Part shown: positions 1,638-24,000 of the stretch, piece by piece
How positions within the stretch are numbered: position 1 is the stretch's first letter
Layout of the letters: each line of letters starts with the position of its first letter
Assembly (NCBI GenBank): GCA_048550155.1
Contig: JBLYYW010000018.1
Coordinates: 1-24,000, forward strand
Origin: Acidimicrobiales bacterium
GTDB taxonomy: Bacteria; Actinomycetota; Acidimicrobiia; Acidimicrobiales; SZUA-35
Reading direction: 5' to 3'
Length of the DNA: 24,000 nucleotides
Notes under the pieces: generated by a model
The model's input: the letters and a program-made list of their open reading frames with translations, nothing else
What the model was told of the DNA's origin: nothing
Databases searched by the model: none
Program-made: the position numbers and the translations under genes

Positions 1638-4600
1638 AATGCCCGTCGCAGCAACGAAGCCTGCTCCTGCATGTGAATAGCACGGGAACCGGTTGCAGGA
1701 CTTCCCGATTCGGTTCGGCTGACCCGACGGATCTTGTGGGTGTCGCCGTGAGCCTCATACAAGCGACCCTTCACTGAGTTCCACGCACCCATGTTCTCGG
1801 GCTCTTCTTGGAGCCACACGATCTCGGTTGCGTTCGGATAACGGCTGAGCGCGGCAGCGATGTCGTCGAAGGGCCAGGGATACAACTGCTCAACACGAAC
1901 AACCGCTGCAGAGATGTCGTTGTCATCGCGATACTGCTCGGCTTCGGCCGCCACCTTGCCCGACGCGAACACCACTCGGCCGACTGCGGTGGCCCGCTCT
2001 ACCGGCGAAGGTTCGAGCACCTCTTCGAAGCTGCCGGAAGTGAACTGGTCGACGCTGTTTCTGGAGTACTTCGCCCGCAGTCCCGATTTGGGGGTGAACA
2101 CGACCAGTGGTTTGTTGATGTCACGAACGATCTGCCGCCGGAGCAAATGGAACAACTGAGCTGACGTGGTTGGGTTTGCAACCTGGATGTTGTCCTCGGC
2201 GCACAAGAGGAGGAACCGCTCGAGACGACCCGAGGAGTGTTCGGGCCCCTGGCCTTCATATCCGTGAGGGAGCAGCATCACCAATGGTGATGCCTCGTTC
2301 CACTTGTCCTCGGCCGCTACCAGGAACTGGTCGATGATGATCTGGGCGCCGTTCACGAAGTCTCCGAACTGTGCCTCCCACAGTGTGAGGCAATCGGGGT
2401 CCACCAACGAATACCCGTATTCGAAGCCGAGGCCGGCGTATTCGGACAACGTCGAGTCGTAGACCCAGAAATCGGTGTCGTCATCCCCAAGTTCAGCGAG
2501 CGGGGTGAACTCGCTGCCATCCTGATAGTGGCTCAACGTTGCGTGCCGATGAGCGAATGTTCCCCGGCGACTGTCCTGTCCAGCAAGGCGTACCGAGGTT
2601 CCTTCGACCAGCAGGGAGCCGTAGGCAAATGCTTCGCCCAGTGCCCAGTCGACCTCACCCGATGCCCACATCTTGTCGCGTGCCACGAACTGCCGCGCGA
2701 GTTTGGGGTGGACCTCGAACCCCTCGGGTACGAACGACAGTGCCTCGTACACCGTGTCCAAGGTTTCCCTGGGGACCGACGTGTCCACGTGGGGGAGCAC
2801 ACCCACTGGGGGCGGCGATGGCTTGGCCAGGATTCCCTCGGGCGGAGCTGACTCTCGAGTGTCGTCCAGTGCCAGCTGCAGCAGCTGTTGGAAATACTCG
2901 ATGGCCTTCTCGGCCTCTTCGATGGACAGCTCACCTCGGTCGATCAGAGCTTGAGTGAAGAGAGTACGAGCGCTGGGCCGTTCGCCGATCTTGCGGTACA
3001 TGACCGGCTGGGTGTAGCTGGGATCATCACCCTCGTTGTGACCGTGACGTCGATAACCGATCATGTCGATAACCACGTCTTTGTTGAAGCGTTGCCGGTA
3101 GGCGAATGCCAGCTGGGCGACGCGCACGCAGGCTTCAGGGTCATCGGCGTTTACGTGGATGATCGGTGCCTGCACCATCTTGGCAACGTCGGTGGAGTAT
3201 TCCGACGACCTGCTGTGGTGCGGGGCCGTGGTGTAGCCGAGTTGGTTGTTGATGATGAGGTGGATGGTTCCTCCGACCTTGTAGCCCTTCACCTGGCTCA
3301 GGTTCAGTGTCTCGGCGACGACTCCTTGGCCGGCGAACGCTGCGTCACCGTGGATGAGAATGGGCAGAATCGGATAGTTGCCCGCATCGCTCTGGTCCAT
3401 GTATGCCCGTGCCATGCCGATCACGACGGGATCGACCGCTTCGAGGTGTGAAGGATTTGCTGCGAGCTCAACTTCCACAGCGTTGCCGTTCCGGCTTGTG
3501 TGGCTACCGGTGAAGCCCAAGTGGTATTTCACGTCCCCCGACCCCTGGATCGCCTCCTGATCGACCGCACCTTCGAACTCTTTGAACAGATCGCGGTGGC
3601 CCTTCTTCATGATGTTGGTGAGCACGTTCAGTCGACCACGGTGAGCCATACCGATGATCCCGCGTTCGATACCCGCATCGGCCGCATCGCTCAAAATGGC
3701 ATCGAGGATCGGGACTGCACTTTCGGCACCTTCCAGGCCAAACCGTTTCTGACCGACGTAGCGGGCGGCCAAGAATTTCTCGAATGCTTCGGCGGTGCTG
3801 AGCCGTTCGAGGATGTGGTGGAGATCTTCGCGATCGAGCCGTGGCGCCGGCACCTCGACTTGTTCCTGAATCCATCGCTTCTCGGTGGGGTCTGCGATGT
3901 GCATGTATTCGACACCGACCGTGCGGCAATACGCGTCACGGAGCACTCCGAGGATGTCACCCAGCTTCATCTGCTTGGCGACGCCATCGATGGCTGCGTA
4001 GATGCCCTCGGTCGTTCCGGTCAGAAATCTTCGATCGAGGTCCCAGATCGTGAGGCCGAACGTGGCCGGGTCGAGTTCGGGGTGGGTTTCCTTGGGCCCA
4101 TCGGAAAGTGGGTTGGTGTTGGCGATGAGGTGGCCGCGGACCCGGTACTGGTTGATCAGAGTGTTCACGCCGTGCTGTTTGGCGATTGCCATGTCGACGT
4201 CGTTGTTGGATGACACCGCATCCTTGCGCCACTGCACAGCTTCGTAGGGAACTCGCATGTCGCCGAAGATCTCGGAGTAGAAGTTGTGCTCACCGAGCAG
4301 CAGCTCATGGACTCGCTTGAGGAACAGGCCAGACTCGGCACCTTGGATGATGCGATGGTCATAGGTGCTCGAGATGGTCATGATCTTGGAGATCCCGAGT
4401 TCGGCCAAGGTGACCGGATCCGCCGCTTGGTATTCGGTCGGGTAGCCGATGCCTCCGAGTCCCACGATGAGACCCTGTCCCGGCATGAGTCGAGGGACGC
4501 TCTGGATCGTGCCGATGGTCCCTGGATTCGTAATCGAGACGTTCGCCCCCATCAGATCATCGACCTTGAGGTTGTTGCTCCTGACCTTGGCGATCGCAGC

Positions 4601-5362
4601 CTCGTAGGTCTCGAGAAACTGTGAGAAGCTCATGTTCTGGGTGTCTTTGAGAACCGGAACGATCAGGCTCCGGGAGCCGTCCGACTTGGCTTGATCGACC
4701 GCGATGCCCACGTTGATCTGGCCGCTCTGGACAACTCTGGGTTTGCCGTCCGAACCGACCGCATAGCTGCTGGCCATCGCCGGGACTTCTTCTCGGATGG
4801 CCCTCACGATCGCGTACCCAATGATGTGGGTGAAGCTCACCTTGCCGCCGCGAACTCTTTTCAAGTGATTGTTGAGCACCTTGCGGTTGATCTCGAGGAG
4901 CTTGGCGGGAACCTCCCTGAAGCTGGTGGCTGTCGGGACCGAAAGGCTTGCCTCCATATTGGTGACGATCCGCGCTGCCGCACCACGTAGTGGGGTGCCC
5001 AGCTCAGGGGCGGCCTCCTTGACGCTGTCGAGCACCTTGGGTGCAGCTGGCGAGGATTCCGGTGCCTCGGCTGGGGGAGCCGCAGCCGGCGCCGCCGGGG
5101 CGGGCGGAACGGTGGCACTGCTACTCGCTCCGTTGGACTTGGACCCGTTCGGAAAATCTGTCGGCGGTGCCGGCGAGTCGGCGTTGAGAGCAGCCGCAGG
5201 CGAGTCCGGACTGGGCGTTGCAGCCGGTGACCCTTCAGCATCGGAGAAAAGGTGTCGCCAGTCCTCGGGAACCGACTTCGGGTTGTCTTTGTAGTTCTGC
5301 GCTAGCTCCTCGACCAGCCACGCATTCGGGCCAAGGGATCTCGGTTCTTCGTTGGAAGCCAC
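1631..5362 (-). CDS. kgd: Multifunctional 2-oxoglutarate decarboxylase/dehydrogenase E1 fused to an E2-like succinyltransferase domain (actinobacterial Kgd/OdhA type)
   Basis: 1243-aa ORF with a GTG start. It has an N-terminal Ala/Pro-rich linker, an E2 catalytic-domain motif (SSTYDHRIIQGAESGLFL) and the long TPP-dependent E1o core (GMAHRGRLNVL, IHGDAAFAGQGVV, LLPHGYEGQGPEHSS). The 3' end overlaps the convergent HAD gene by 7 nt. Confidence 0.95.
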   Translation of the reverse strand: MASNEEPRSLGPNAWLVEELAQNYKDNPKSVPEDWRHLFSDAEGSPAATPSPDSPAAALNADSPAPPTDFPNGSKSNGASSSATVPPAPAAPAAAPPAEAPESSPAAPKVLDSVKEAAPELGTPLRGAAARIVTNMEASLSVPTATSFREVPAKLLEINRKVLNNHLKRVRGGKVSFTHIIGYAIVRAIREEVPAMASSYAVGSDGKPRVVQSGQINVGIAVDQAKSDGSRSLIVPVLKDTQNMSFSQFLETYEAAIAKVRSNNLKVDDLMGANVSITNPGTIGTIQSVPRLMPGQGLIVGLGGIGYPTEYQAADPVTLAELGISKIMTISSTYDHRIIQGAESGLFLKRVHELLLGEHNFYSEIFGDMRVPYEAVQWRKDAVSSNNDVDMAIAKQHGVNTLINQYRVRGHLIANTNPLSDGPKETHPELDPATFGLTIWDLDRRFLTGTTEGIYAAIDGVAKQMKLGDILGVLRDAYCRTVGVEYMHIADPTEKRWIQEQVEVPAPRLDREDLHHILERLSTAEAFEKFLAARYVGQKRFGLEGAESAVPILDAILSDAADAGIERGIIGMAHRGRLNVLTNIMKKGHRDLFKEFEGAVDQEAIQGSGDVKYHLGFTGSHTSRNGNAVEVELAANPSHLEAVDPVVIGMARAYMDQSDAGNYPILPILIHGDAAFAGQGVVAETLNLSQVKGYKVGGTIHLIINNQLGYTTAPHHSRSSEYSTDVAKMVQAPIIHVNADDPEACVRVAQLAFAYRQRFNKDVVIDMIGYRRHGHNEGDDPSYTQPVMYRKIGERPSARTLFTQALIDRGELSIEEAEKAIEYFQQLLQLALDDTRESAPPEGILAKPSPPPVGVLPHVDTSVPRETLDTVYEALSFVPEGFEVHPKLARQFVARDKMWASGEVDWALGEAFAYGSLLVEGTSVRLAGQDSRRGTFAHRHATLSHYQDGSEFTPLAELGDDDTDFWVYDSTLSEYAGLGFEYGYSLVDPDCLTLWEAQFGDFVNGAQIIIDQFLVAAEDKWNEASPLVMLLPHGYEGQGPEHSSGRLERFLLLCAEDNIQVANPTTSAQLFHLLRRQIVRDINKPLVVFTPKSGLRAKYSRNSVDQFTSGSFEEVLEPSPVERATAVGRVVFASGKVAAEAEQYRDDNDISAAVVRVEQLYPWPFDDIAAALSRYPNATEIVWLQEEPENMGAWNSVKGRLYEAHGDTHKIRRVSRTESGSPATGSRAIHMQEQASLLRRAFQ

Positions 5363-10353: not shown

Positions 10354-12315
10354 CTAGGCATCCTGCACGATCTTGAGGATTGCCTCGCCGTATTTCTCCA
10401 GTTTTGTCGGTCCGATCCCGCTGATCCCGGCCAGCTGGCCTCTGGATCGGGGTCGTTGCGCGGCGATTGCCTTGAGGGTCGCGTCGTTCAATACCACGTA
10501 GGCAGGAACGTCGTGTGCCTTGCTTTGGGCATGGCGCCATGATCGAAGCTCAAGGAACAGAGGGTCGTCGTTGGCTGAGCTCTTTGTCTTGCCCAGCGCG
10601 TGGCGGGCTTGCTTGGCCATCACCTTGTACTTGGTGGGATCGAGGCCCTTCCGTAGATGCTCGATTGCGCGTTCGATCTCACCCAAATACGGCGACGGAC
10701 GGCGCGAAGCCGGTTTGGTGCGGAAGGTTCGTTCCTCGGCGAAGCTCAGGTGAAGTTCTCTTCGGGCTCGTGTGACCGCCACATACAGCAGCCGTCGTTC
10801 CTCGGCCAACTGAGCGCCTGTTTCGGCGTAGCTGATCGGAACAAACCCTTGCTCCAAACCGGCGATGTGTACAACCGGCCACTCGAGTCCCTTGGCTCCG
10901 TGAAATGTGGACAGGTCGACCGCATCGGAATCACGGTGGACTTCGTTGGCTTGCACGGTTGCGAGCCAGGCGAGGAAGTCGGGGCCGCTGGGCTGAGTAT
11001 CGATCACCAGGTAGTCGTTCACCAAGCGCAACAGGGCCTCGCGGTTGGCGTGCCGCTCGGCTTCGTTGGGTGTCTGATCCTCGGGTGGGTCCTTGAGTTC
11101 GTCGGAGAACTCCTCGACCGCCTGCACGAAATCGATTCCGGGGCGGCCGAGGCGACGGATGACCTCTTTGACTTCTGGGGTTGCCAGGGGCCCTTTTCCG
11201 CCACGCATCCTGACCGGGATCCCCGCCGCCGCGAGCGCCTGTTCGATCACGACCAGCTGAGCGTTGGTTCTCACCAAGATCGCCTGGCCGTTCCATCCGT
11301 CAGCGGGGTCCTGACAGCGGCGTACCGACGCAGCCACCCCTCGTGCCTCCTCGGCTTCATTTTCATAGGCAGTGACCGTCGGAAGCGGACCGTCGCTCTG
11401 ATGGGGGATGAGGTCTCCACCCTTGCCGGCCAAGGCAGCCTTGGCGAGGGTAAGGATTTGTGCACTGGAGCGATAATTGTCGTTGAGCCGAATCACCGTG
11501 GTCTTGGGTTCGCGCTGGGGGAAATCGGTGATGAGAAAGGGGTTGGCCCCGTTCCAGCCGTAGATGGCCTGGTTGGGATCACCGACGATGAAGAGATCGT
11601 CGTTCTTGCCCCGCCACTCATTCAGGAGAGCATTCTGGAGCGGGTTGACATCTTGAAACTCGTCGACATAGAGGTGGCGGTGCCGCCAACGGACCGCGTC
11701 GGCATATCCGGGGTCAGCCCGGAGGTCGCGCACGGCCAGGGAAAGCAGATCATCGAAGTCGACCAAACGGCGACGCTTTTTCAGTTGGCTGTAGCGTTCC
11801 ACCAGATCGACGAACTCGTCGGCACCAATTGGAGGTGTCCGACCGGCTTTCTCAGCCTCTGAGTGGTAGTAGTCAGGTTCGATCATTCGGGCCCGGGCCC
11901 ACTCCATTTCGCCGATGACGTCGGCGATCTCGACGTCTTTACGCCGGCCGACGAGCTGAGCGACCATTGAGTACTTGCGATCGAGCATGACAGGCGGTTC
12001 GATACCCCGTTCCTCCCAACGTCGCCGCAGCTGTGTGAGGGCGACGCTGTGGAAGGTTCCGGCGACGACGTGGTCTCTCAGACCGAGCTGACGAAGCCGA
12101 CTTTGTAACTCATTGGCGGCCTTGCGGGTGAACGTGAGCGCGAGGACGTAGCGGGGGTCGGTTTCTCCGACGTGGATGCGATAGGCGATCCGACGAGTGA
12201 GGACACGGGTCTTACCTGAGCCTGCTCCTGCGTGGACCACCAACGGTCCGCCCGGCGATGTGACGGCTGAGATCTGCGCCTCGTTCAGGCCATCCAAAAG
12301 CCGTTCCGGATCCAT
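10354..12315 (-). CDS. UvrD/Rep/PcrA superfamily-1 DNA helicase with a C-terminal HRDC domain (UvrD2-like architecture)
   Basis: ORF 10354..12609. The preferred start is the ATG at 12315 (MDPERLLDGLNEAQISAVTS), because the upstream 98 codons run through a repeat/hairpin region. Motifs seen are Walker A GAGSGKT, DEFQDVNP, TFHGAKGLEW and VAVTRAR. The C-terminus looks like HRDC (LFLELRSWRHAQSKAHDVPAYVVLNDATLKAIAAQRP...ISGIGPTKLEKYGEAIL). Confidence 0.9.
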   Translation of the reverse strand: MDPERLLDGLNEAQISAVTSPGGPLVVHAGAGSGKTRVLTRRIAYRIHVGETDPRYVLALTFTRKAANELQSRLRQLGLRDHVVAGTFHSVALTQLRRRWEERGIEPPVMLDRKYSMVAQLVGRRKDVEIADVIGEMEWARARMIEPDYYHSEAEKAGRTPPIGADEFVDLVERYSQLKKRRRLVDFDDLLSLAVRDLRADPGYADAVRWRHRHLYVDEFQDVNPLQNALLNEWRGKNDDLFIVGDPNQAIYGWNGANPFLITDFPQREPKTTVIRLNDNYRSSAQILTLAKAALAGKGGDLIPHQSDGPLPTVTAYENEAEEARGVAASVRRCQDPADGWNGQAILVRTNAQLVVIEQALAAAGIPVRMRGGKGPLATPEVKEVIRRLGRPGIDFVQAVEEFSDELKDPPEDQTPNEAERHANREALLRLVNDYLVIDTQPSGPDFLAWLATVQANEVHRDSDAVDLSTFHGAKGLEWPVVHIAGLEQGFVPISYAETGAQLAEERRLLYVAVTRARRELHLSFAEERTFRTKPASRRPSPYLGEIERAIEHLRKGLDPTKYKVMAKQARHALGKTKSSANDDPLFLELRSWRHAQSKAHDVPAYVVLNDATLKAIAAQRPRSRGQLAGISGIGPTKLEKYGEAILKIVQDA

Positions 12316-12353
12316 CCCCCTGACCTTACCCACCACCTCTGACACTATGACCT

Positions 12354-12599
12354 CGAGCGGAAGGTGAGAAGGCGCTTTGCGCCGCCGAACGGCAGGGATT
12401 GCGGGTTGAGGGTTGTGTTGGGAGCGTTTCGGCGCCCTGCGCCGAAAGGCGGTTAGTGAGAAGGCGCTTTGCGCCGCCGAACGGCAGGGACGGAGCAACA
12501 CCTGCAATCTGGGGGCTTGTTCGAGCGAAGCGAGCGGGAACCCTCCGGGTTCCTTGAAGCGACCTGAGGAGGCGCCCTGCGCCGACGATGCGAGCGGAA
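12354..12599. repeat. Intergenic array of direct repeats and short GC hairpins (REP/MITE-like or structured RNA)
   Basis: A perfect 35-nt direct repeat, GTGAGAAGGCGCTTTGCGCCGCCGAACGGCAGGGA, lies at 12364-12398 and 12456-12490. A perfect 15-nt repeat, GGCGCCCTGCGCCGA, lies at 12431-12445 and 12571-12585. Four GGCGC-N3-GCGCC hairpins lie at 12371, 12431, 12463 and 12571. (G)CGAGCGG(G)AA occurs at 12354, 12530 and 12590. A GGAACCC-TCC-GGGTTCC hairpin lies at 12537-12553. Confidence 0.8.
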
Positions 12600-12605
12600 T
12601 CAGAA

Positions 12606-13235
12606 TCACAGCCGGCGCAGCAGTTCGGCTTTCTTGGACTCGAATTCGGCATCGGTGAGAATGCCGCGGTTGCGGAGCTGGTCGAGCTGCGCGATCTGGT
12701 CGGGGATGGAGTCGCTGCCGCCGCCGCTGCCGCCCAGCTGGTCCTTGATCGACTGGCCGACGCGGTCGAACTTTCGATTCTCGTTGTACTCGATCTGGCG
12801 ATAGATCTCGTTTTGTACGTTCAGCGGACGACGGATGTCGGTGAAGTTCGATGTTCCTTCTTCGGAGGCTGATTCGATCTCGAGGTCACCGGACTTGATC
12901 ATACGTTCGAAGATGCTCTGCCGGAAGAAGACGGTGTTGATCTTCTCGAGCGGTATTTCCACACCGCTGCGGCTGAGGACACCGGACCGGGAGATCAATC
13001 GATCGGTGGTGATCACGAAGCTCGTGGTCGCCCACCGCAGATAGCTGACTCCGAACCACAGAAGCGCAACGACGACGCCAATACCGGCGACAAGGTTGAG
13101 GAGGCTCGGTGCACCATCCCAGGCAAGTATCAGCACCCCCAACGCCATTGTTGCGACCAGCAGAGCGATCGGTTTGGCGAAATACCACCAGTGGGGACGC
13201 AGATCGAGCACGACCTGCTCGTTGTGATTGAGCAT
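12606..13235 (-). CDS. Membrane protein with a bacterial PH (bPH_2 / YdbS-YdbT-like) domain and a C-terminal SHOCT domain
   Basis: ORF 12606..13388. The preferred start is the ATG at 13235 (MLNHNEQVVLDLRPHWWYFAKP), which is the typical bPH_2 N-terminus. Two TM helices follow, then TTSFVITTDRLISRSGVLSRSGVEIPLEKINTVFFRQSIFERMIKSGDLEIES. The C-terminus LDQLRNRGILTDAEFESKKAELLRRL has the SHOCT pattern. Confidence 0.75.
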   Translation of the reverse strand: MLNHNEQVVLDLRPHWWYFAKPIALLVATMALGVLILAWDGAPSLLNLVAGIGVVVALLWFGVSYLRWATTSFVITTDRLISRSGVLSRSGVEIPLEKINTVFFRQSIFERMIKSGDLEIESASEEGTSNFTDIRRPLNVQNEIYRQIEYNENRKFDRVGQSIKDQLGGSGGGSDSIPDQIAQLDQLRNRGILTDAEFESKKAELLRRL

Positions 13236-13353
13236 CTCCGGTGGGAACGACACAATGGTGAGGGTAATCGCTTTCGGCCCCAAGCTGCGTGCCGCTGACA
13301 GCGCTGCACCTGAACCGAAATGCGAGACCATCGGTGCGGTCCCGTCGTCCGCA

Positions 13354-13359
13354 TACGAT
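13354..13359 (+). promoter_or_regulatory. Candidate -10 box (TACGAT) 7 nt upstream of the malic-enzyme ATG, suggesting a leaderless transcript
   Basis: TACGAT at 13354-13359, then 7 nt, then the ATG at 13367. The geometry matches that at the HAD gene (998-1011). Confidence 0.3.
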
Positions 13360-13366
13360 CGAGGCC

Positions 13367-14773
13367 ATGACCAGCACGCCCCCGGCAACCCAATACTCCA
13401 TCTCTGTTCGAGTCACCCTGGAGAACAAGCCGGGGGTGCTCGGCGAGCTCGCAACTGCGATCGGTTCGGCCGGGGGCAGTATTTACGCCATCGATGGATT
13501 CGTGGCCAAGGGGCCTGAGCTGGAACGAGAGATCGTGGTCAACTGCTCCAGCGTTGAGCATCAGTCGGAGATCATCGCAGCGATCGATGCTGTGGAGCGG
13601 GTGGCATTGCACAGCTGGCACGATCGCACCTTCCGCATGCATGAAGGTGGCAAGATCGAGGTTCTTCCTCTCTGTCCGGTCGGTGATCGTGACGATCTGT
13701 CGATGGCCTACACGCCCGGTGTCGCCCGGGTCTGCAATGCCATCGCTGAGGATCAGTCCCGGGCCGACGAACTGACGATAAGGAAGAACACCGTCGCCAT
13801 CGTGAGCGACGGAACTGCAGTGCTCGGGCTCGGGAACATCGGCCCGAAGGCAGCCTTGCCCGTTATGGAGGGCAAGGCGCTGCTGTTCAAGGAGTTCGCC
13901 AACGTCGACGGTTTCCCGATCGTGCTCGACGTTGACTCACCGGAGGATCTCATCGAGACTGTCGTTCGCATCGCCCCAACATTTGGCGGCATCAACCTCG
14001 AAGATATTGCGGCACCGGCTGCGTTCTTGGTCGAGTCCGAACTGAAACGCCGGCTCGACATACCGGTGTTCCACGATGATCAGCACGGTACAGCGGTGGT
14101 CGCTCTCGCCGCGTTGGAGAACGCTGTGAAGGTGGTGGGCAAGACACTCCAGGATCTCACGGTCGTGATCAACGGCATCGGTGCTGCCGGCCTGGCGATC
14201 GGCAAAATCCTGTTGAATGCGGGTGTTGCCCACGTGGTTGGGACCGATCGCAGCGGTGCGATCTATGACGGCCGTGATGGGCTGAACGAGGCCAAGCAGT
14301 GGTTTGCGGAGAACACCAACCCGGAGAAGCGAGCCGGTTCGTTGGCCGAAATCATCTCGGGTGCTGATGTCTTCATCGGTGTGAGCGCCCCCGGTGTCCT
14401 GGCAGTCGAGGATGTGAAGTCCATGGCCGCCGACCCGATCATCTTTGCCATGGCGAATCCGGATCCTGAAATCCTCCCCGAGCAGGTTGAGGGACTCGTG
14501 GCGGTCATGGCTACGGGCAGGTCGGATTACCCCAATCAGATCAACAACGTGCTGGCGTTCCCCGGCATCTTTCGAGGAGCCTTCGACGCTCGAGCCAGCG
14601 ACATCACCGAAGGGATGAAGTTGGCGGCGGCTCAGGCGATCGCTGCCAGTGTGGATCCGACCGAATTGTCGGCGACCTGCGTGGTCCCGTCGGTATTCGA
14701 CAAGTCGGTGCCGTTGAGGGTGGCTGAAGCTGTCGCACAGGCAGCGCGCGACGAAGGGGTCGCCCGAGCGTGA
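13367..14773 (+). CDS. NAD(P)-dependent malic enzyme (oxaloacetate-decarboxylating malate dehydrogenase) with an N-terminal ACT domain
   Basis: ORF 13289..14773. The preferred start is the ATG at 13367. The N-terminus looks like an ACT domain (ISVRVTLENKPGVLGELATAIGSAGGSIYAIDGF). The malic-enzyme core shows LSMAYTPGVA, VSDGTAVLGLGNIGP, NLEDIAAP, FHDDQHGTAVV, INGIGAAGLAIGKIL and FAMANPDPEI. Confidence 0.9.
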   Translation: MTSTPPATQYSISVRVTLENKPGVLGELATAIGSAGGSIYAIDGFVAKGPELEREIVVNCSSVEHQSEIIAAIDAVERVALHSWHDRTFRMHEGGKIEVLPLCPVGDRDDLSMAYTPGVARVCNAIAEDQSRADELTIRKNTVAIVSDGTAVLGLGNIGPKAALPVMEGKALLFKEFANVDGFPIVLDVDSPEDLIETVVRIAPTFGGINLEDIAAPAAFLVESELKRRLDIPVFHDDQHGTAVVALAALENAVKVVGKTLQDLTVVINGIGAAGLAIGKILLNAGVAHVVGTDRSGAIYDGRDGLNEAKQWFAENTNPEKRAGSLAEIISGADVFIGVSAPGVLAVEDVKSMAADPIIFAMANPDPEILPEQVEGLVAVMATGRSDYPNQINNVLAFPGIFRGAFDARASDITEGMKLAAAQAIAASVDPTELSATCVVPSVFDKSVPLRVAEAVAQAARDEGVARA

Positions 14774-17015: not shown

Positions 17016-17897
17016 TTATAAACGCTGGAGAATCGCGTTGTGGGTCGCAAGAACTCGTCGTGCGTTGTCCACGTGGAGGTTCTCGATCATCCGCCCGTCA
17101 ACCGTCGCAACGCCGCTTCCAGCCGCTTCTGCGGCCGAAAACGCAGAAATCACTTTTTTCGCGTTTTCGACCTCTTTTTGGCTAGGAGACCATGTGTCAT
17201 TGCATGTTTCGATCTGGTTTGGGTGAATCAGCGTCTTGCCGTCGAAGCCGAGTTCGAAACCCTGAGCACACTCTGCAGCGAAGCCCTGCGGGTCTTTGAT
17301 GTTGTTGTACACGCCGTCCAGAACAGCGATCTGAGCCGCTCGCGCCGCCAGGATTGTGGCGGCCAAATGAGGAACCAGGTTGGCTCGACCCGCAGTGAGC
17401 GGCGCCCGCAATTCCTTGGCGAGGTCATTGGTTCCCATCACGAATGCGGAGCATCGCGGATGCCGTGCGATGTCCAATGCGTTGAGCACTCCGAGAGGAG
17501 ATTCGATCATGGCCCAGACGCTGACGCTGTCAGAAGCTCCTGCGGCTGACAGCGCCTCGGCCACGGCATCGAGTTCGTCGGCGGTGTCGACCTTGGGAAT
17601 CACGACAGCTGCTGGGGTCGCCTGTGCCGCCGCCGCGATGTCCTCAGCGCCCCACGGAGTGGTGAGGCCGTTGCAGCGGATTGTGAGCAATCGATTCCCG
17701 TACTCACCGCTCGCCACGGCCGCGGCCGCTTTGGCTCGAGCATCAACTTTGGCGTCGGGAGCGACGGCGTCCTCGAGGTCGAAGATGATGGCGTCCGCCG
17801 GCAGTGTCTTCGCCTTTTCGAGTGCTCGATCATTCGCTGATGGCATATAGAGGACACTGCGGAGGACCTCGATATCGGAGGTGTCGTCAGAAGCCAT
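17016..17897 (-). CDS. HpcH/HpaI aldolase / citrate lyase beta-subunit (CitE)-like protein; candidate malyl-CoA thioesterase or acyl-CoA lyase
   Basis: 293 aa. [61 protein letters not shown] and [11 protein letters not shown] are typical CitE-like motifs. The start overlaps the mcl stop by 11 nt. Confidence 0.85.
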
Positions 17898-18951
17898 AGC
17901 TTGCTGCCAGTTCTGGGTCTCGGGCTGCGAGGCTCTTGGCGAGTTCGACCACGACGTGGCACTGCTTCACGCTGGCGTCATCCTCCATCTTGCCGTCCAA
18001 CATGATGGCCCCGGTCCCGTCTCCCATGGCGTCGATCACCCGTTGCGCCTGGGCGACGTCCTCGGGTCGGGGACTGAAGACTTTCTTGGCAACGGCGATC
18101 TGTTTGGGGTGCAGACTCCACGCTCCGACACAACCGAGAAGGTAGGCGTTTCGGAACTGGGCCTCGCAGGCGACGGTGTCGGCGATGTCTCCGAAGGGCC
18201 CATAGAACGGGAGAATCCCGTGGGTCACGCAGGCATCGACCATGCGGGCGATCGTGTAGTGCCAGAGGTCTTGCTGATAGCGATCTCGTGGGGCGTTGAT
18301 ATCGGGCGCACCGTCCTCGCCGGGCGGTGGGTCACCCTGCACCACGTAGTCGGGGTGGCCGCCCCCGACCCGGGTGGTTTTCATTCGACGGTTGGCAGCC
18401 AGATCGGCTGGCCCGAGCGAGATCCCTTGCATCCTGGGTGACGCACCACAGATCGCTTCCACGTTGGAAACCCCGCGGGCTGTTTCGAGGATTGCGTGGA
18501 ACAGTATCGGGTGGGACAGGTTCGCCCTGGCCTCCAGCTGGGCTACCAGCCGATCGGCGTAGTGGATGTCCTCGGGGCCTTCCACCTTCGGGATCATGAT
18601 CACGTCGAGGGAGTCGCCGATCTCGGTCACCAGTGTGGTGAGATCGTCGAGGGCCCACGGTGAGTCAAGACTGTTGATTCTCGTCCACAGTTGTGTGTCA
18701 CCCATGTCGACCGAGCGGCCGACGGCCACCATTCCGGCTCGGGCCGCGTCCTTTTCGGCCATCGGTACGCCGTCTTCCAAGTTACCCAAGAGAATGTCCA
18801 CTGTTGGCGCCATATCAGGCACCTTGGCGACCATCTTGGCGTTGGATGGCGGGAAGAAGTGGATCATGCGGCTGGGTTTGACCGGGATCTCACGCAGCGG
18901 ATCCGGTGCACCAACCGCAAGCGGGCGGAAGAAGTCTTTTGGAGGTCGCAC
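17887..18951 (-). CDS. mcl: L-malyl-CoA/beta-methylmalyl-CoA lyase (Chloroflexus Mcl-type, ~350 aa, HpcH/HpaI family)
   Basis: 354 aa with a GTG start. It appears near-colinear with my recollection of Chloroflexus aurantiacus Mcl: [122 protein letters not shown] and [13 protein letters not shown]. Confidence 0.85.
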
Positions 18952-19093
18952 GCTGCCGAGCGTACGCCTCCAATCATGGTCGAATGAAAACGGCGACCGG
19001 GGCCTTGGTCAGATCCGCCGTGATGGCTACGAGGCGTGCTTTCAGAGCCGGGACGCTGCGTTCGCAGCCGTGCCGATTGGGCCTCGCAGGGCC

Positions 19094-19372
19094 CTATCTC
19101 GGGTCCGTTTCGTCGACGTGGTCGACAATGCCGACGATGACAGACCGGATCGGACCCGTGTCGATCCCGAAGATCTGGCGAGCGGACGTTCCTTCATCAC
19201 AAATCAGCACGTTGTCGCCGACCCCTGCGTCCACCACATTCACCGCAATCAAGTAGCGTCCTGTCGGCTCGCCGACCGGGTTGACCTCGTCGCACAACAG
19301 GAGGCGTTGCCCGTCGAAGAAGGGGTGGCTGATTGGCGAGACCACCGTTCCTGCGACCCGTCCGAGCTTCAT
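19094..19372 (-). CDS. BMC-P vertex (pentamer) shell protein, EutN/CcmL/PduN family (paralog 3)
   Basis: 92 aa: MKLGRVAGTVVSPISHPFFDGQRLLLCDEV...IAVNVVDAGVGDNVLICDEGTSARQ...VIVGIVDHVD. This is the canonical EutN/CcmL pattern. It has an ATGA overlap with the upstream BMC-P gene. Confidence 0.9.
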   Translation of the reverse strand: MKLGRVAGTVVSPISHPFFDGQRLLLCDEVNPVGEPTGRYLIAVNVVDAGVGDNVLICDEGTSARQIFGIDTGPIRSVIVGIVDHVDETDPR

Positions 19373-19650
19373 TGTGGACCCCCGGCCAAGGTCACCTCAT
19401 CGACCAGACCCACGATGGCGTGGTCGACGGGCACGAACCTCTCCTCCAGCGCCTCGGCGGCCTCTCGCGAAGCGACGAAGTAGACGAGTTCGCCCGGCCC
19501 GGCCATGGCTACCGCATCGGCGGCGACAATGGGCGAACCGTGGTCCTGTTGATGTTTGTCCAGCGGCTGGACGATCAGAAACCTCACGCCGTCCAGACCC
19601 TCGGACTTGATCGTGGCCACCACCGTGCCCGTTACCCGACCCAGTTGCAT
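19369..19650 (-). CDS. BMC-P vertex shell protein, EutN/CcmL/PduN family (paralog 2)
   Basis: 93 aa: [31 protein letters not shown]...VAADAVAMAGPGELVYFVASREAA...AIVGLVDEV. GGGAG lies 5 nt upstream of the ATG. It has an ATGA overlap with the upstream BMC-T gene. Confidence 0.9.
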   Translation of the reverse strand: MQLGRVTGTVVATIKSEGLDGVRFLIVQPLDKHQQDHGSPIVAADAVAMAGPGELVYFVASREAAEALEERFVPVDHAIVGLVDEVTLAGGPQ

Positions 19651-20282
19651 CAGGTCTCCCGGAGGTCGTGGAGTTGGTGGTTGAATCGCAACCCCAGATC
19701 CATCGTTTTCACCATGTCCTGATGAAGTTGGGGGATCACGGCCGTCGCCACCAACTTGCCGCCTCGCTCGATTTCTTGGGCGGCTCGATCGACCGAGGCC
19801 TCGGTATCGGCCACCGTGCCGGCGAACAAGCAGTATGCCTTGCCTCCCAGGTCGTCGCCGAGTCGAAGGGCCGCCAGGGACACTTCGGCCGCCTTGACGC
19901 CGGCGTCGGCAGCCACGATGGCCGAGGCAACCGAGGCTGTTTCCACAATGCCAACCGCGTCGGGAGTGATCGGCTTGTCCGGTTCGGTTCCGGTGATTGC
20001 AGCTACGACCGCAGGATGGACGTTGGCCAATAGCAAGCTGTCCACCACGGTGTTGGTTCCTCCGGCCTCGAGCGCGATCTCTACTGCAGCGGTGTCGCCA
20101 CCGACCAGAACCACATACCGGCCGGGGTGTACCGTGCCCGCATACAGCGCGGCCACCGGCGACGCCTTGGCCATGGCGTCGGCTCCGACGATGCCTGCCA
20201 CGATCGAGTCGAACTCGAGTAGGCCGATTGCGGGGTCGAATTGGGCGAAACCGGTTTCAGACAAGGCGTAGCGCTCCAACAA
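19650..20282 (-). CDS. BMC-T shell protein with tandem BMC domains, PduT-like
   Basis: 210 aa with a TTG start (no ATG or GTG alternative before the first BMC domain). Two BMC domains are present: AIGLLEFDSIVAGIVGADAMAKAS... and AVGIVETASVASAIVAADAGVKAAEV.... By recollection it is colinear with Salmonella PduT (LVLANIHPSVLPAISG versus LLLANVHPAVVAAITG). It overlaps the AldDH 3' end by 26 nt. Confidence 0.88.
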   Translation of the reverse strand: MLERYALSETGFAQFDPAIGLLEFDSIVAGIVGADAMAKASPVAALYAGTVHPGRYVVLVGGDTAAVEIALEAGGTNTVVDSLLLANVHPAVVAAITGTEPDKPITPDAVGIVETASVASAIVAADAGVKAAEVSLAALRLGDDLGGKAYCLFAGTVADTEASVDRAAQEIERGGKLVATAVIPQLHQDMVKTMDLGLRFNHQLHDLRET

Positions 20283-21714
20283 CAGTCACCCTGCGAATTC
20301 GGGAAAACGTACGAGGCCGGGTGAGGCCTTCGCCGGTTGGACTGGCTATCGAGAACGACGAGTACCCCTCGCCGGCCTGACCGAGACCTGCGAAGTTGGG
20401 CCCGTTCGCCACCAAGATCGAACAGTTCATGGCACGAGCCATCGTGGTGATCGTGTCGACGTTGGTCGAGTGGATCGAGGCGGTATGGCGGAACCCGTGT
20501 TCGGACCGGACTGCCAGGTCGATGGCCTGGTCGACGTTCTTGACCCGTACGACCGGCATCACCGGCATCATCTGTTCGGTCCACACCAGCGAGTGATCGG
20601 ACCGGACCTCGGCCAGGAGTAGCCGCACATCGCCTTCGACGCTCACGCCGATCTCCCCGAGGAGTTCACCGGCGTTCTTGCCAATCCACACAGGATTGAT
20701 GGCCCCCGGCTTGTTGGCCGCTCCCATCTTGTTGAAGATTACCCGCTCCAAACGCCGCAGCTCGTGTTCCTTGAGCCGGTAGGCGCCGGCCTTCACCATG
20801 GCCCGCACCAGCGCGTCAGCCACGGTGTCGACGACGATCGTGGTCTTCTCGTCCGCGCACACGATGTTGTTGTCGAACGATGCGCCTCGCACGATGTCGG
20901 TGGCCGCCTTGGCGATGTCGGCGGTTTGGTCGACCACCGCCGGCGGGTTGCCGGGCCCGGCCGTGATCGCCTTCTTCGGGCTGCGCAACGCCTCGCCGAC
21001 GACGGCCGGGCCACCGGTGACCAGCAGAACCCGCACGTCGGGGTGGGCCATCAATGCCTGAGCCGATTCCAGAGTTGGATGGGCCACCGCGGTGATGAGG
21101 TTGGGTGGTCCGCCGGCTCCGACGATGGCCCGGTTCAGGAGCTTGATGTTCTCCATCGACACCTGGCGGGCGCCAGGATGCACGTTGAACGCAACCGCAT
21201 TGCCGGCAGAGATGATCGCGATGCTGTTGTTGATGATGGTCGATGTGGGGTTTGTGGTCGGGGTTATCGAGCCGATGACGCCGTAGGGGGCGTACTCGCT
21301 CAGCATCATGCCCTCGTCACCGGTGACGACATGGGGCTCCAAGTCTTCGGGACCCGGGGTTTTGGTGGTGACCAAGTGGTTCTTCACCACCTTGTCCTCC
21401 GGGCGGCCCAACCCGGTTTCGGCATGAGCCATGTAGGCCAGCCGTTCACCTTCGCGGAGCATGGAGGCTCGCATCGCCTCAACGATGACCCGACGAACGT
21501 CCAGTCCCATCTTGCCGTAGGTTGCGGACGCCTGGAAAGCGGCTCTGACGGCGGCATCGACCGTTTCGAAGATGCCGTCACCGAGGAGTTCGTCCGGTGT
21601 GCCCAGCGCATCGGCGGCTCGAAGGGCGGATCCTTCGCTGAGGCCACCCTGGGCCCCGGCTACCCGGCCCCGGACGCGTTCGATGATCGACTGGACCTCG
21701 TGGTCGCTCAGCAC
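20257..21714 (-). CDS. CoA-acylating aldehyde dehydrogenase (PduP/EutE-like) with an N-terminal encapsulation-peptide-like helix
   Basis: 485 aa with a GTG start 7 nt after the BMC-P stop. The catalytic-Cys context SFDNNIVCADEKT matches the PduP/EutE F-D-N-N-x-x-C-x-A-E-K pattern. The N-terminal SDHEVQSIIERVRGRV is an amphipathic helix, followed by a Gly/Ala-rich linker before the core (GIFETVDAAVRAA). Confidence 0.9.
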   Translation of the reverse strand: MLSDHEVQSIIERVRGRVAGAQGGLSEGSALRAADALGTPDELLGDGIFETVDAAVRAAFQASATYGKMGLDVRRVIVEAMRASMLREGERLAYMAHAETGLGRPEDKVVKNHLVTTKTPGPEDLEPHVVTGDEGMMLSEYAPYGVIGSITPTTNPTSTIINNSIAIISAGNAVAFNVHPGARQVSMENIKLLNRAIVGAGGPPNLITAVAHPTLESAQALMAHPDVRVLLVTGGPAVVGEALRSPKKAITAGPGNPPAVVDQTADIAKAATDIVRGASFDNNIVCADEKTTIVVDTVADALVRAMVKAGAYRLKEHELRRLERVIFNKMGAANKPGAINPVWIGKNAGELLGEIGVSVEGDVRLLLAEVRSDHSLVWTEQMMPVMPVVRVKNVDQAIDLAVRSEHGFRHTASIHSTNVDTITTMARAMNCSILVANGPNFAGLGQAGEGYSSFSIASPTGEGLTRPRTFSRIRRVTVVGALRLV

Positions 21715-21721
21715 CGCGTAC

Positions 21722-22009
21722 TCACTTCCGGTACACCGTTTCGCCGTCGACCTCCCAGGTGTCGACGATGGCCATGACCACCGCGTCGCAAGGCTTGTTC
21801 TGCGTGACGCCGGTCTGGCGAGCCGAACTGCCCGAGGCGTACATCACCACTTCGCCGACGCCGGCGCCCACTGCGTCGACGGCCACGACATAACCACCGC
21901 TGTCGCTGTTGTCGACTCCGATCTGACGCACCAGCAGGAAGGTCAAACCCTCGATGAGCGGCTCCTTTTGACTGGCCACAACGGTGCCGGTCACACGTCC
22001 GAGGAGCAC
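21722..22009 (-). CDS. BMC-P vertex shell protein, EutN/CcmL/PduN family (paralog 1)
   Basis: The ORF track gives 21722..22147. The family-typical N-terminus V(M)[15 protein letters not shown] begins at the GTG at 22009, 4 nt after the BMC-H stop. The rest reads ...FLLVRQIG...[25 protein letters not shown]...[13 protein letters not shown]. Confidence 0.85.
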
Positions 22010-22013
22010 TGGC

Positions 22014-22316
22014 TCAGCCCGACTCTGCAGCGGCCTCGTCGGCTCGACCGAGGGGAAGAACCGTGTCGATGTTGACATGGGGGCGGGCGATGACGTGGGT
22101 TGCGATAACTTCACCGACCTTTTCCGCGCCGCGAACGCCTGAATCAACCGCAGCCTTCACTGCGGCCACGTCGCCACGAACAACGGCAGTGACGTAGCCG
22201 CCACCGGTCGATTCGTAGGACACCAAGTCGACCTTGGCTGCCTTGACCATCGCATCGGCGGCTTCCACCATCGCTGCGAAACTCCTGCACTCAATCATGC
22301 CTAGCGCTTCAGCCAT
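22014..22316 (-). CDS. BMC-H hexameric shell protein (PduA/EutM/CcmK-like single BMC domain)
   Basis: The ORF track gives 22014..22571. The real start is the ATG at 22316, with GGGAG 6 nt upstream. The sequence [80 protein letters not shown] is a textbook Pfam BMC domain. The start overlaps the upstream BMC-T stop (ATGGCTGA). Confidence 0.92.
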
Positions 22317-23010
22317 TACTGGCTCCCTTCTTGTTTCGGGTTGTTGTTGTCTTCTGTGCTGTTGGCTTCGGGGCTGGCGCCTTGTGAGGCTCGCGGCCAT
22401 CCATGCCCTCGAGCGCCGCGACCGCGGCCCGCCAGCCAGCATCGATATCCCGCTCCTCGCCACCGAGGTACACCCGTCCCATGGCCCCAGCCGCCCGGAC
22501 CTCCAGCACATTGATGTCGGCCGCCTTCTCGGCCTCGTTGGCGGCGAGCGCGGCATACGCTGCTGGCTCACATTCCAACACGTACAACGTCTGGCCGGGC
22601 ACGATCATCTGGCCGTGGCGCATGCGATTGATGAGCTGTGCGTGATGGTCGTCGATGCGTCGGATGATCTGGCTGGACATGATCCTGGGCTTGAGCCGGT
22701 CTGACTCTGCCATCCCCAACGAATCCAGAATTGCCGCTCCCGCCGCCCGGGTCTCGGCTTGGTCGGGGGAGTGCACCTCCAACAAGCCGTAGTAGCGCTC
22801 GATGATCTGCATCCCCGGTTTCACACGGGTCGCTTTCAGGGCAACGTCGGTGAGCCGATTGATCTCGATTCCGGGCGCCACCTCGACGTACAGAGAGGCA
22901 TCACCCGCCAGGGGGAGGAACCCTTGAGCGACGGTTCCCAAGAATGCGGCGTATTGCGGTTGGAGGCTGTCCAAAAAGGCGAAGGACCGGATCTCAATAG
23001 CTGTTTCCAC
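22309..23010 (-). CDS. BMC-T shell protein with tandem permuted BMC domains, CcmP/CsoS1D-like (BMC-T double-stacking type), with a Lys/Thr/Pro-rich C-terminal tail
   Basis: The ORF track starts at the TTG at 23034. The preferred start is the GTG at 23010, preceded by AAGGAG-N6. [57 protein letters not shown]...[29 protein letters not shown]...[24 protein letters not shown]...[18 protein letters not shown] closely follows my recollection of cyanobacterial CcmP. The tail is [24 protein letters not shown]. Confidence 0.85.
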
Positions 23011-23842
23011 TGCTGTCTCCTTCGTTTGGGCCAACGATTTGTACTCCGGCCGAAGCTCCGATTCTGGTCGCCCCAGCCGCGATCATGTCCTCGACATCCG
23101 ATTTGGTCCGCACTCCGCCTGACGCCTTGACACCCATGTCGGGCCCAACGGTTTCGCGCATGAGGGCCACGTCGTACACGGTGGCGCCACCGCCACTGAA
23201 TCCGGTTGACGTTTTCACGAAGTCGGCCTTCGCCTTCTTTGCCAGAGACGAGGCAACCACCTTCTCTTCGTCTGTCAACAACGAGGTTTCGAGGATGACT
23301 TTGACGATCGCCCCCGCTTCGTGCGCAGAATCGACCACCTTTGCGATATCGACCAGCACGGTCTGGTGATCTCCCGATTTGAGCGCTCCGACGTTGATGA
23401 CCATGTCGACCTCTCTGGCGCCGTCACGAATGGCTCGCCGAGCCTCCATGGCCTTTATCTCCGCTGTCGCTGCGCCCAGAGGGAAGCCGATGACCGAACA
23501 CACCTTCACTTCGCTGCCCCGCAGGTGTGTCGCTGCCCGTTTGACCCATGTCGGATTCACACACACCGAGGCGAACTGGAACTTCTCGGCTTCTTGGCAG
23601 AGCCGGTCGATGTCGTCAGCGGTTGTCTCGGGCTTCAAGGCGGTGTGGTCTATGTACTTGGCCAGGTCGAGTGGGACCTCCGACGCGTCACCGTGGAACG
23701 CCACCCGGTCTGCCCCGTTCACGATCACCTGGCGGACGCCTTCGGGCGTCTCGCAGCGATCTGCCTGACTGGCCAGCGTGCTCATGACCTCTTTGGTAAT
23801 GAGTTCGATGAGTAGCTCCCGGTCCAAGGGTTGATCGGTCAC
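22994..23842 (-). CDS. deoC: Deoxyribose-phosphate aldolase (DERA, DeoC/LacD class I aldolase family) with an N-terminal extension of about 58 aa carrying an encapsulation-peptide-like helix
   Basis: The ORF maximum is 22994..23863 (GTG). The preferred start is the GTG at 23842, preceded by GAGGAG-N6. The DeoC core shows [25 protein letters not shown] and [13 protein letters not shown]. The Schiff-base Lys context is DFVKTSTGF, followed by [10 protein letters not shown]. The N-terminal [21 protein letters not shown] is an amphipathic helix. Confidence 0.9.
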
Positions 23843-23852
23843 GCTTGACTCC

Positions 23853-24000
23853 TCACGCTTCACTCCTGATGTAGGTCGATTCGATCTCGTTGATGAGCGT
23901 CACCCGCTTGTGATGACGTCCTCGGCCCCACGGAGTGGCAAGCCACTCTTGCACGATCTGCCATGCCAACCCGGCACCGGTGAGACCGGCACCTAGCGTC
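23853..24000 (-). CDS. rpiB: Partial CDS (C-terminal 48 codons only): RpiB/LacAB-family sugar-phosphate isomerase
   Basis: Absent from the ORF track because it is open at the window edge. Manual translation gives ...[48 protein letters not shown]. From memory this parallels the E. coli RpiB C-terminus GLELAKMIVDAWLGAQYEGGRHQQRVEAITAIE. The stop overlaps the deoC 5' region. Confidence 0.7.

Follow-up and report, generated by a model that had tools for sequence, protein, structure and literature searches.

Introduction

In Rhodobacter sphaeroides, the ethylmalonyl-CoA pathway has an apparent malate synthase that is made up of Mcl1 and Mcl2 (Erb et al. 2010, cited in PMC3832036). Malyl-CoA lyases (MCLs) of the Chloroflexus type are grouped in a cluster of their own (MCLC), for which a pairwise identity of at least 57% together with a conserved N-terminal sequence is the criterion (Zarzycki & Kerfeld 2013, PMC3832036), and MCLC cleaves citramalyl-CoA as well (PMC3832036). 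In the CitE-like superfamily, the lid domain carries a conserved Asp (D318 in MCLC, D299 in MCLR); only the cluster of the R. sphaeroides malyl-CoA thioesterase has Glu at this position (PMC3832036). Here, we study a gene pair related to these enzymes, mcl and mcl2-like, at positions 17016-18951 of a 24,000-nucleotide (nt) stretch from an Acidimicrobiales bacterium (contig JBLYYW010000018.1, GC content ~62%), which we refer to as the window. The pair lies directly downstream of the shell genes of a bacterial microcompartment (BMC).

Among the described BMC types, SPU3 has AldDH, pfam01791 and pfam02502 as its only enzymes, lacks a phosphotransacylase (PTAC) and counts Actinobacteria among its hosts (Sutter et al. 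2021, Supplementary Data 2). Metabolosomes without PTAC recycle CoA "in as yet unknown ways" (Axen 2014). With regard to the host group, MedAcidi-G3 was the one among four marine Acidimicrobiales genomes for which the ethylmalonyl-CoA pathway was predicted (PMC4337565). An initial annotation of the window had proposed that the pair serves the neighbouring BMC as acetyl-CoA sink and CoA recycler in place of PTAC. Our comparison leads to a different view: very likely, 17016-18951 is an autonomous two-gene unit of acidimicrobial central carbon metabolism, whose adjacency to an SPU3 operon is a lineage-specific accident.

Results

Layout of the pair and the malyl-CoA lyase

The two genes are as follows.

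17887..18951, minus strand: mcl, 354 amino acids (aa), GTG start; Chloroflexus-type (MCLC-type) L-malyl-CoA/beta-methylmalyl-CoA lyase, probably leaderless
17016..17897, minus strand: mcl2-like, 293 aa, ATG start; Glu-type CitE-like protein, probable (3S)-malyl-CoA thioesterase

Their reading frames overlap by 11 nt (ATGGCTTCTGA). The initial annotation was right about the overlap and its length, while its wording that the CitE-like gene "follows by" 11 nt is not; it had placed mcl correctly at 142 nt past the last BMC-P gene (19094-19372) and on the same strand. Both proteins match the Pfam family HpcH_HpaI (E 6e-27 for the 354-aa and E 3e-47 for the 293-aa protein).

The 354-aa Mcl aligns end to end with the Roseiflexus enzyme 6kin (1-354 vs 1-347; 490 bits, E 3e-146) and matches the Chloroflexus enzyme 4l7z over its full length (E 8e-144), which bears out its earlier assignment to the Chloroflexus type; the matches to the Rhodobacter and Methylobacterium enzymes are far weaker (E 7e-61 and 1e-51). 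Its identity to 6kin is roughly 65%, estimated by eye rather than computed by a tool, and the conserved MCLC N-terminus is present. The motifs LED, WTRIN, LETA, GPADL and GKMEDD align with the reference residues E60/D61, R92, E157, D184 and the lid residue D318, and the lid Asp is kept in 120/120 Mcl homologs. The MCL-specific insertion (182-220) is found as well, 7 residues longer (loop 208-222). Judged by these sequence and residue features, the protein is a member of the Chloroflexus-type MCLC cluster. Proteins 75-92% identical to it, which JGI names malyl-CoA/(S)-citramalyl-CoA lyase, are found in hundreds of Acidimicrobiia genomes.

Co-occurrence with microcompartment genes

We compared Mcl loci and BMC loci from both sides. 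For the Mcl side, one genome per species was scanned with the Mcl protein, resulting in 80 loci that are almost all from Acidimicrobiia (73-84% identity). The sequence upstream of Mcl reaches at least 3 kb in 65 of them and at least 9 kb in 54. For the BMC side, metagenomes were scanned with the AldDH of the neighbouring operon, which also yielded 80 loci (70-87% identity; at least 1.2 kb beyond the terminal BMC-P in 36 and at least 3 kb in 27).

No shell, AldDH or DERA match was found within 10 kb of Mcl in the 80 Mcl loci, even at E 1e-2. Vice versa, the 80 BMC loci, including the 36 with at least 1.2 kb of downstream sequence, contain no Mcl, CitE-like protein, DUF389 or malic enzyme. That is, the co-occurrence of mcl/citE-like pairs with DERA-type BMC loci in relatives, which the initial annotation had suggested to check, amounts to 0/80 Mcl loci and 0/80 BMC loci. 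The window is thus the single case in which the two lie side by side. Conserved co-location with shell genes, by which an SPU3 accessory enzyme would be recognised, is not seen either, given that 0/36 BMC loci with at least 1.2 kb downstream carry Mcl.

We also compared the proteins with their orthologs from BMC-free genomes. Both have the same termini and length and align from the first to the last residue; neither carries an encapsulation peptide (EP) or an N- or C-terminal extension relative to these orthologs, which agrees with the earlier remark that no EP was obvious in either protein. Within the BMC operon, the window's DERA exceeds stand-alone DeoC by ~58 residues at the N-terminus (an EP-like amphipathic helix) and ~10 at the C-terminus, and AldDH has the N-terminal EP EVQSIIERVRGRV. 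Since the pair has no encapsulation extension, it would be cytosolic and would not recycle CoA inside the shell. The central claim of the initial annotation is thus not sustained, i.e., co-occurrence is absent both ways and mcl has retained its own predicted promoter, as described in the following.

Promoter of mcl and the intergenic gap

The 142-nt gap between the last BMC-P gene and mcl holds the following elements; L169, L170 and L171 are loci of close BMC-free relatives.

18959..18964, minus strand: -10 box TACGCT, 7 nt upstream of the GTG at 18951
18985..18993, minus strand: TTTTC(A/G)T element (-35-like) and upstream limit of the homology with BMC-free relatives, from the alignment with L169-L171
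18994..19093, minus strand: ~100 nt specific to this genome, from the BMC-P stop codon to the native mcl promoter, with a branched hairpin and a weak terminator-like site

A convincing TANNNT -10 box in the gap had been missed initially: TACGCT is located at 18964-18959, 7 nt before the GTG. In Actinobacteria, a -10 box at such a spacing marks a leaderless mRNA, for which the start codon is the first base. A TANNNT hexamer that ends 6-9 nt before the Mcl start codon is present in 69/81 orthologous loci. A second count, which allowed for 5-9 nt and in which the observed distances were 6-9 nt, found it in 67/79 loci (85%) compared to 15/9006 control positions (0.2%) from the same sequences. Most of the loci without the hexamer show a GGAG-type ribosome-binding site instead. 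The -10 box region (GGCGTACGCTC) is identical in the window, L169, L170 and L171, the TTTTC(A/G)T element is common to the window and its close relatives, and the blastn homology with L169-L171 ends ~42 nt upstream of the mcl GTG. We infer from the conserved -10 box a native leaderless promoter of mcl, i.e., the gene clearly retains its own predicted start signals. The GGAGG at -17 to -13 was considered as Shine-Dalgarno sequence of mcl and is less likely, given that it ends 12 nt before the GTG and that the relatives have the -10 box there.

Folding of the 171-nt stretch 18940-19110, which exceeds the gap itself, results in -73 kcal/mol (z = -1.9). The terminator-like site at 19011-18994 is one weak match, i.e., no more than shuffled sequences give. 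The ~100-nt genome-specific stretch resembles nothing at the 3' ends of the other BMC loci, for which we also sought a conserved 3' end or terminator common to the BMC operons and found none. Regarding the findings by which the initial annotation had proposed to judge its idea, the lack of co-occurrence is thus observed, an independent promoter is predicted from the conserved signals and no convincing terminator was found in the gap.

Identity of the CitE-like partner

In the 293-aa protein, Glu replaces the lid Asp, as it does in 118/120 homologs. Within a small panel of relatives, those at least 42% identical to the protein have Glu and those at most 39% identical have Asp; the latter are true CitE, a CoA-transferase-linked Ralstonia lyase and a Rhodococcus lyase. 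The best match on an annotated replicon is WP_011537135 of Ruegeria sp. TM1040 (51% identity, E 3e-97, lid VDGKIV-E-NLHV), which is encoded three genes away from a 346-aa Mch-type MaoC dehydratase and whose close orthologs carry the name (3S)-malyl-CoA thioesterase in JGI, NCBI and UniRef. This group of annotated roseobacter orthologs stood in for the characterised R. sphaeroides Mcl2. The Glu-type group, including the 293-aa protein, was monophyletic in 199/200 neighbour-joining bootstraps. An entry labelled Nocardioides marinus (P0337) is 86% identical to the thioesterase-annotated roseobacter group, probably due to contamination or recent transfer in that assembly.

The best solved relatives of the 293-aa protein are MCLs, where the alignment breaks at the site of the MCL-specific insertion, which is absent from the protein. 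The CitE-like lyases Ccl/RipC, Rv2498c and CLYBL come out as weaker PDB matches than the MCLs (3qll, E 2e-27; 5vxc, E 1e-26; 1u5h, E 7e-12), and no curated NCBIfam cut-off is reached. Given the Glu signature, the annotation names and the clade membership, the protein is most likely a (3S)-malyl-CoA thioesterase. The combination of an MCL with a member of the Glu-type, thioesterase-annotated clade lends support to the earlier guess of a Mcl1/Mcl2-like "apparent malate synthase". A true citrate lyase beta subunit (CitE) was rejected as candidate: TIGR01588 scores 199 and 130 bits where 443 would be required, neither citD nor citF is among the window proteins scanned, and Klebsiella CitE is 34% identical and has the lid Asp where the 293-aa protein has Glu.

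Conservation and pathway context in Acidimicrobiia

The CitE-like gene follows Mcl in 71/72 loci of the Mcl-side survey that offer room for it. The only locus with enough sequence where this does not hold is L027 (10001-11047 and downstream; Ilumatobacteraceae, 4.9 Mb contig). Four metagenome-assembled genomes labelled "Bifidobacterium sp." or "Bifidobacterium breve" (L037, L038, L042, L049) have the Acidimicrobiia-type pair with 77-79% identity, such that their taxonomy labels are probably wrong. For the analysis of neighbours, only gene clusters with domain or PDB support were used, since greedy calling of the longest open reading frames (ORFs) in GC-rich loci produces many antisense artefacts.

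Mcd and MaoC are among the genes most often conserved near the pair in other Acidimicrobiia. Mcd, an acyl-CoA dehydrogenase of ~540 aa with an N-terminal extension, is found near the pair in 38 loci and has (2S)-methylsuccinyl-CoA dehydrogenase as best PDB match (8ciw, E 5e-138; 6es9, E 3e-86). The 170-aa MaoC protein is found in 29 loci, and its best PDB matches (8hgn, 4e3e) are beta-methylmalyl-CoA dehydratases, i.e., mesaconyl-CoA hydratases. In these other Acidimicrobiia, Mcd, MaoC, Mcl and the thioesterase-type protein are predicted to form the lower branch of the ethylmalonyl-CoA pathway. The close, presumably translationally coupled pairing of an MCLC-type and a Mcl2-type gene, together with its near-universal presence in the sampled Acidimicrobiia, may not have been explicitly described before, although we regard this as an incremental annotation point.

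The neighbouring microcompartment operon and downstream genes

The operon upstream of mcl comprises the following genes, listed from the window end towards mcl.

23853-24000, minus strand: RpiB-like (pfam02502) C-terminus, last 148 nt, cut by the window end
22994-23863, minus strand: DERA (deoC type) with N-terminal EP (TIGR00126, 287 bits)
22309-23034, minus strand: BMC-Tdp, CcmP-like (NF053796, 339 bits)
22014-22316, minus strand: BMC-H (Pfam/NCBIfam domain match)
21722-22009, minus strand: BMC-P, first (Pfam/NCBIfam domain match)
20257-21714, minus strand: AldDH, acylating, with N-terminal EP (NF011927, 614 bits)
19650-20282, minus strand: BMC-Ts, PduT-like (Pfam/NCBIfam domain match)
19369-19650, minus strand: BMC-P (Pfam/NCBIfam domain match)
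19094-19372, minus strand: BMC-P, last (Pfam/NCBIfam domain match)

The mechanically called ORFs of BMC-H (22014-22571, 185 aa) and of the first BMC-P (21722-22147, 141 aa) are over-extended; domain positions and related loci point to likely starts at 22316 (ATG, 100 aa) and 22009 (GTG, 95 aa), respectively. RpiB and DERA are the signature enzyme pair of the SPU types, and the full RpiB of related loci has ~230 aa with an EP-like N-terminal extension. The upstream border of the operon was drawn from relatives only.

The core order RpiB, DERA, BMC-T, BMC-H, BMC-P, AldDH, BMC-T, BMC-P, BMC-P is the same in 80/80 BMC loci. Beyond it, no further enzyme family is conserved in the flanks of these loci, and the only recurrent neighbour is a divergent helix-turn-helix (HTH) gene. 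This gene of ~200 aa (MerR/excisionase-like by eye) lies upstream of RpiB in 24/80 related SPU3 loci, e.g., L094 (1482-2102), L101 (6350-7198) and 22 others, and is a candidate regulator. As the initial annotation had noted, PduL/Pta is missing, i.e., no such domain was found in the 20 window proteins scanned. From its genes, the operon is an SPU3-type sugar-phosphate BMC, predicted to be functionally separate from the pair. Since SPU3 lacks PTAC as a rule, its absence is not something that this genome would specifically have compensated.

Downstream of the pair, the initial annotation had reported an ACT-malic enzyme on the opposite strand, which our domain scan recovers.

13289/13367-14773, plus strand: ACT-malic enzyme (domain scan)

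The ACT-malic enzyme (13289-14773, plus strand), a bPH-SHOCT membrane protein (12606-13388, minus strand) and UvrD-HRDC (10354-12609, minus strand) are syntenic with the pair in several BMC-free relatives (L004, L013, L017, L022, L059, L062, L169, L170). The proximity of the malic enzyme to the pair is therefore older than the BMC operon. Further away, a 1243-aa fusion of a 2-oxoacid acyltransferase domain and a 2-oxoglutarate dehydrogenase E1 (actinobacterial Kgd/OdhA type; 1631-5362, minus strand) is kept near the locus in L054.

The deoC slot upstream of mcl

Downstream of the pair, the window has its gene order in common with four close relatives, namely L170 (Mcl 90% identical), L169 and L171 (CitE-like protein 82% and 80% identical) and L176; they share varying subsets of DUF389, a 242-aa protein, the ACT-malic enzyme, bPH-SHOCT, UvrD and NhaP-Usp. 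All four have a stand-alone 222-aa DeoC without EP directly upstream of Mcl, i.e., where the window has the BMC operon.

L169, 8229-8897: stand-alone deoC
L170, 1499-2167: stand-alone deoC
L171, 7620-8288: stand-alone deoC
L176, about 2-205: stand-alone deoC

The gap between deoC and mcl is 49-50 nt in L169, L170 and L171 and ~117 nt in L176. Between stand-alone DeoC and the catalytic portion of the DERA in the window, identity reaches only 47-55%; the swap is thus a displacement, and neither protein is a recent derivative of the other. This suggests that the SPU3 operon took the place of deoC in situ and like for like, where the direction of the replacement is the one that we infer. The juxtaposition of BMC and mcl would then be inherited from the position where deoC happened to sit.

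Other neighbours are found upstream of mcl elsewhere, namely an SDR in L177, which has the nearest Mcl homolog (92% identity), a redoxin gene in L173, a thiolase-like gene in L001 and Mcd in many loci; in L004 and L013 the upstream sequence ends in what by eye is an alpha/beta-hydrolase-like C-terminus. Read most simply, synteny generally breaks at the 5' boundary of the mcl promoter. We also sought a common insertion site of BMC and Mcl loci via shared flanking genes, which gave scattered matches only. The thiolase-like gene that precedes Mcl in L001 recurs in L081 at a distance of 4 kb upstream of the BMC, a hint that is not conclusive.

Discussion

In the reading that we favour, Mcl would cleave beta-methylmalyl-CoA into glyoxylate and propionyl-CoA and would also condense glyoxylate with acetyl-CoA to malyl-CoA, which the Glu-type CitE-like protein would then hydrolyse to malate and CoA. 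These steps would be the last part of the ethylmalonyl-CoA pathway or serve glyoxylate assimilation in general. The pair would be transcribed from its own promoter (TTTTCAT, TACGCT, 7 nt, GTG) as a leaderless mRNA, and the 11-nt overlap may couple the translation of the two genes.

Some observations weigh against this reading. JGI orthology names the Acidimicrobiia orthologs of the 293-aa protein "citrate lyase subunit beta/citryl-CoA lyase" and not thioesterase, and the thioesterase call draws on the Glu signature, the annotation names and the clade membership. Neither Mcd nor a Mch-like gene is present in this window, such that the pathway role assigned to the pair here derives from family membership. 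An intrinsic terminator search and folding revealed no convincing terminator in the 142-nt gap, so that transcription might read through from the BMC operon into mcl. Finally, a DERA gene, solitary or BMC-borne, lies upstream of mcl in a sub-lineage (five loci including the window), which could hint at a local link.

The strongest form of such a link, i.e., that the DERA-type BMC has a dedicated outlet in the pair, where acetyl-CoA from AldDH and glyoxylate would give malate, free CoA and replace PTAC in co-transcription with the shell genes, is very improbable in our view. The enzymology would be plausible, but no glyoxylate-producing enzyme is among the window proteins, and nearly all of the sampled Acidimicrobiia have the pair, with or without a BMC in the vicinity. 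PTAC is indeed missing from the locus and from its 80 relatives, yet these relatives and the Mcl loci show zero co-occurrence in either direction. Likewise, the shared strand and the distance of 142 nt from the last shell gene, with no convincing terminator found in between, have to be set against the native leaderless promoter kept directly upstream of mcl, and ortholog-like protein lengths without EP imply that CoA could not be regenerated in the lumen. A weaker link would hold that the sub-lineage selectively keeps DERA next to mcl-mcl2, such that the C2 unit of deoxyribose-5-phosphate is routed to malate in the cytosol, and that the BMC operon took over from solitary deoC in situ since position or co-regulation matters. 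This would fit with the DeoC genes that immediately precede Mcl in four close relatives, with the DERA-bearing operon that the window has at this very position and with the displacement indicated by 47-55% identity between DeoC and the BMC DERA. On the other hand, the neighbours in this slot vary (SDR in L177, redoxin, thiolase, alpha/beta-hydrolase-like, Mcd), which makes it a place where synteny generally breaks, mcl has its own promoter also in the deoC-bearing relatives, there is no AldDH beside the solitary deoC, and the sample is small, i.e., 4 loci from possibly closely related populations with three from one metagenome (3300045962). We thus consider this link unlikely, and hold the same low expectation for the general notion that there is a reason for a DERA function to stay beside mcl. 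The combined scenario, in which the slot is reserved for DERA function, the BMC displaced deoC in situ and Mcl and the thioesterase form the cytosolic sink of a PTAC-less metabolosome outside its shell, is slightly less probable still.

With regard to enzymatic function, the 293-aa protein might instead be a second C-C lyase for citramalyl-, HMG- or citryl-CoA (of the Ccl/RipC, Rv2498c or CLYBL kind), so that the pair would serve itaconate, mesaconate or leucine catabolism. Its best NCBIfam models are citE and RipC_Ccl, but both are sub-threshold, with family scores far under the curated cut-offs (199 vs 443; 160 vs 375). The JGI name citryl-CoA lyase points in the same direction, as do the best scores of the MaoC neighbour in relatives against RipB/Ich and the cleavage of citramalyl-CoA by MCLC itself (PMC3832036). 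In contrast, the lid residue is Glu, compared to Asp in the lyases compared and in the superfamily outside the thioesterase cluster (PMC3832036), and the protein groups with the thioesterase-annotated clade, apart from true CitE and the CoA-transferase-linked Ralstonia lyase. Furthermore, no CoA transferase gene adjoins the pair in the window or in L169-L171, while L173 has two CoA_transf_3 genes ~3 kb upstream. A second lyase therefore appears unlikely to us, and we retain the autonomous pair of lyase and probable thioesterase.

Had the BMC-outlet idea been true, it would have offered one way to fill the recognised CoA-recycling gap in PTAC-less metabolosomes; the comparative data show that it does not hold here. 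The open question is thereby sharpened, since SPU3 loci as a class have neither PTAC nor a conserved substitute in their flanks. What the locus offers is sequence-level evidence for an MCLC-type lyase and a Mcl2-type protein in a putatively coupled, leaderless unit, which aids the metabolic reconstruction of the abundant aquatic Acidimicrobiia. The leaderless-promoter signature of mcl can be used for start-codon annotation, and at the deoC slot, a BMC operon with DERA may have taken the place of a stand-alone deoC in situ.

Comparison with known systems

The neighbouring operon matches the SPU3 type (Sutter et al. 2021) part for part, in that AldDH and pfam01791 both have N-terminal EPs and are accompanied by pfam02502, one BMC-H, a BMC-P triplet, a CcmP-like BMC-Tdp and a BMC-Ts without PduS, with no PTAC. 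In contrast, a CitE-family enzyme is in no part of that description, and the Mcl pair only abuts the locus here.

The 293-aa protein shares with Ccl/RipC, M. tuberculosis Rv2498c and human CLYBL the TIM-barrel HpcH/HpaI fold, the Mg-binding residues and the trimer-swapped lid. It differs in its lid Glu from the Asp described for the superfamily outside the thioesterase cluster (PMC3832036).

For the lyase, the Mcl proteins of Chloroflexus aurantiacus and Roseiflexus castenholzii (4l7z, 4l80, 6kin) are the closest counterparts. The match is full-length and gap-poor (E 1e-144 to 1e-146), and the window's Mcl has the conserved N-terminus, the MCL insertion, the lid domain and all catalytic residues. 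The context of the 3-hydroxypropionate bi-cycle of Chloroflexus is not shared, i.e., no mct or meh was seen in the flanks.

Compared to Mcl1/Mcl2 of R. sphaeroides, the lyase studied here is of the MCLC type, which is ~37% identical to the Rhodobacter type (PMC3832036). The window genes are adjacent with an 11-nt overlap, whereas the roseobacter mcl2 ortholog adjoins mch and not mcl; the host is an actinobacterium. Nevertheless, both systems combine a CitE-superfamily lyase with a paralogous Glu-type protein, the predicted chemistry would be the same (glyoxylate and acetyl-CoA to malyl-CoA, and further to malate and CoA), and Mcd and a Mch-like gene lie nearby in many of the Acidimicrobiia relatives.

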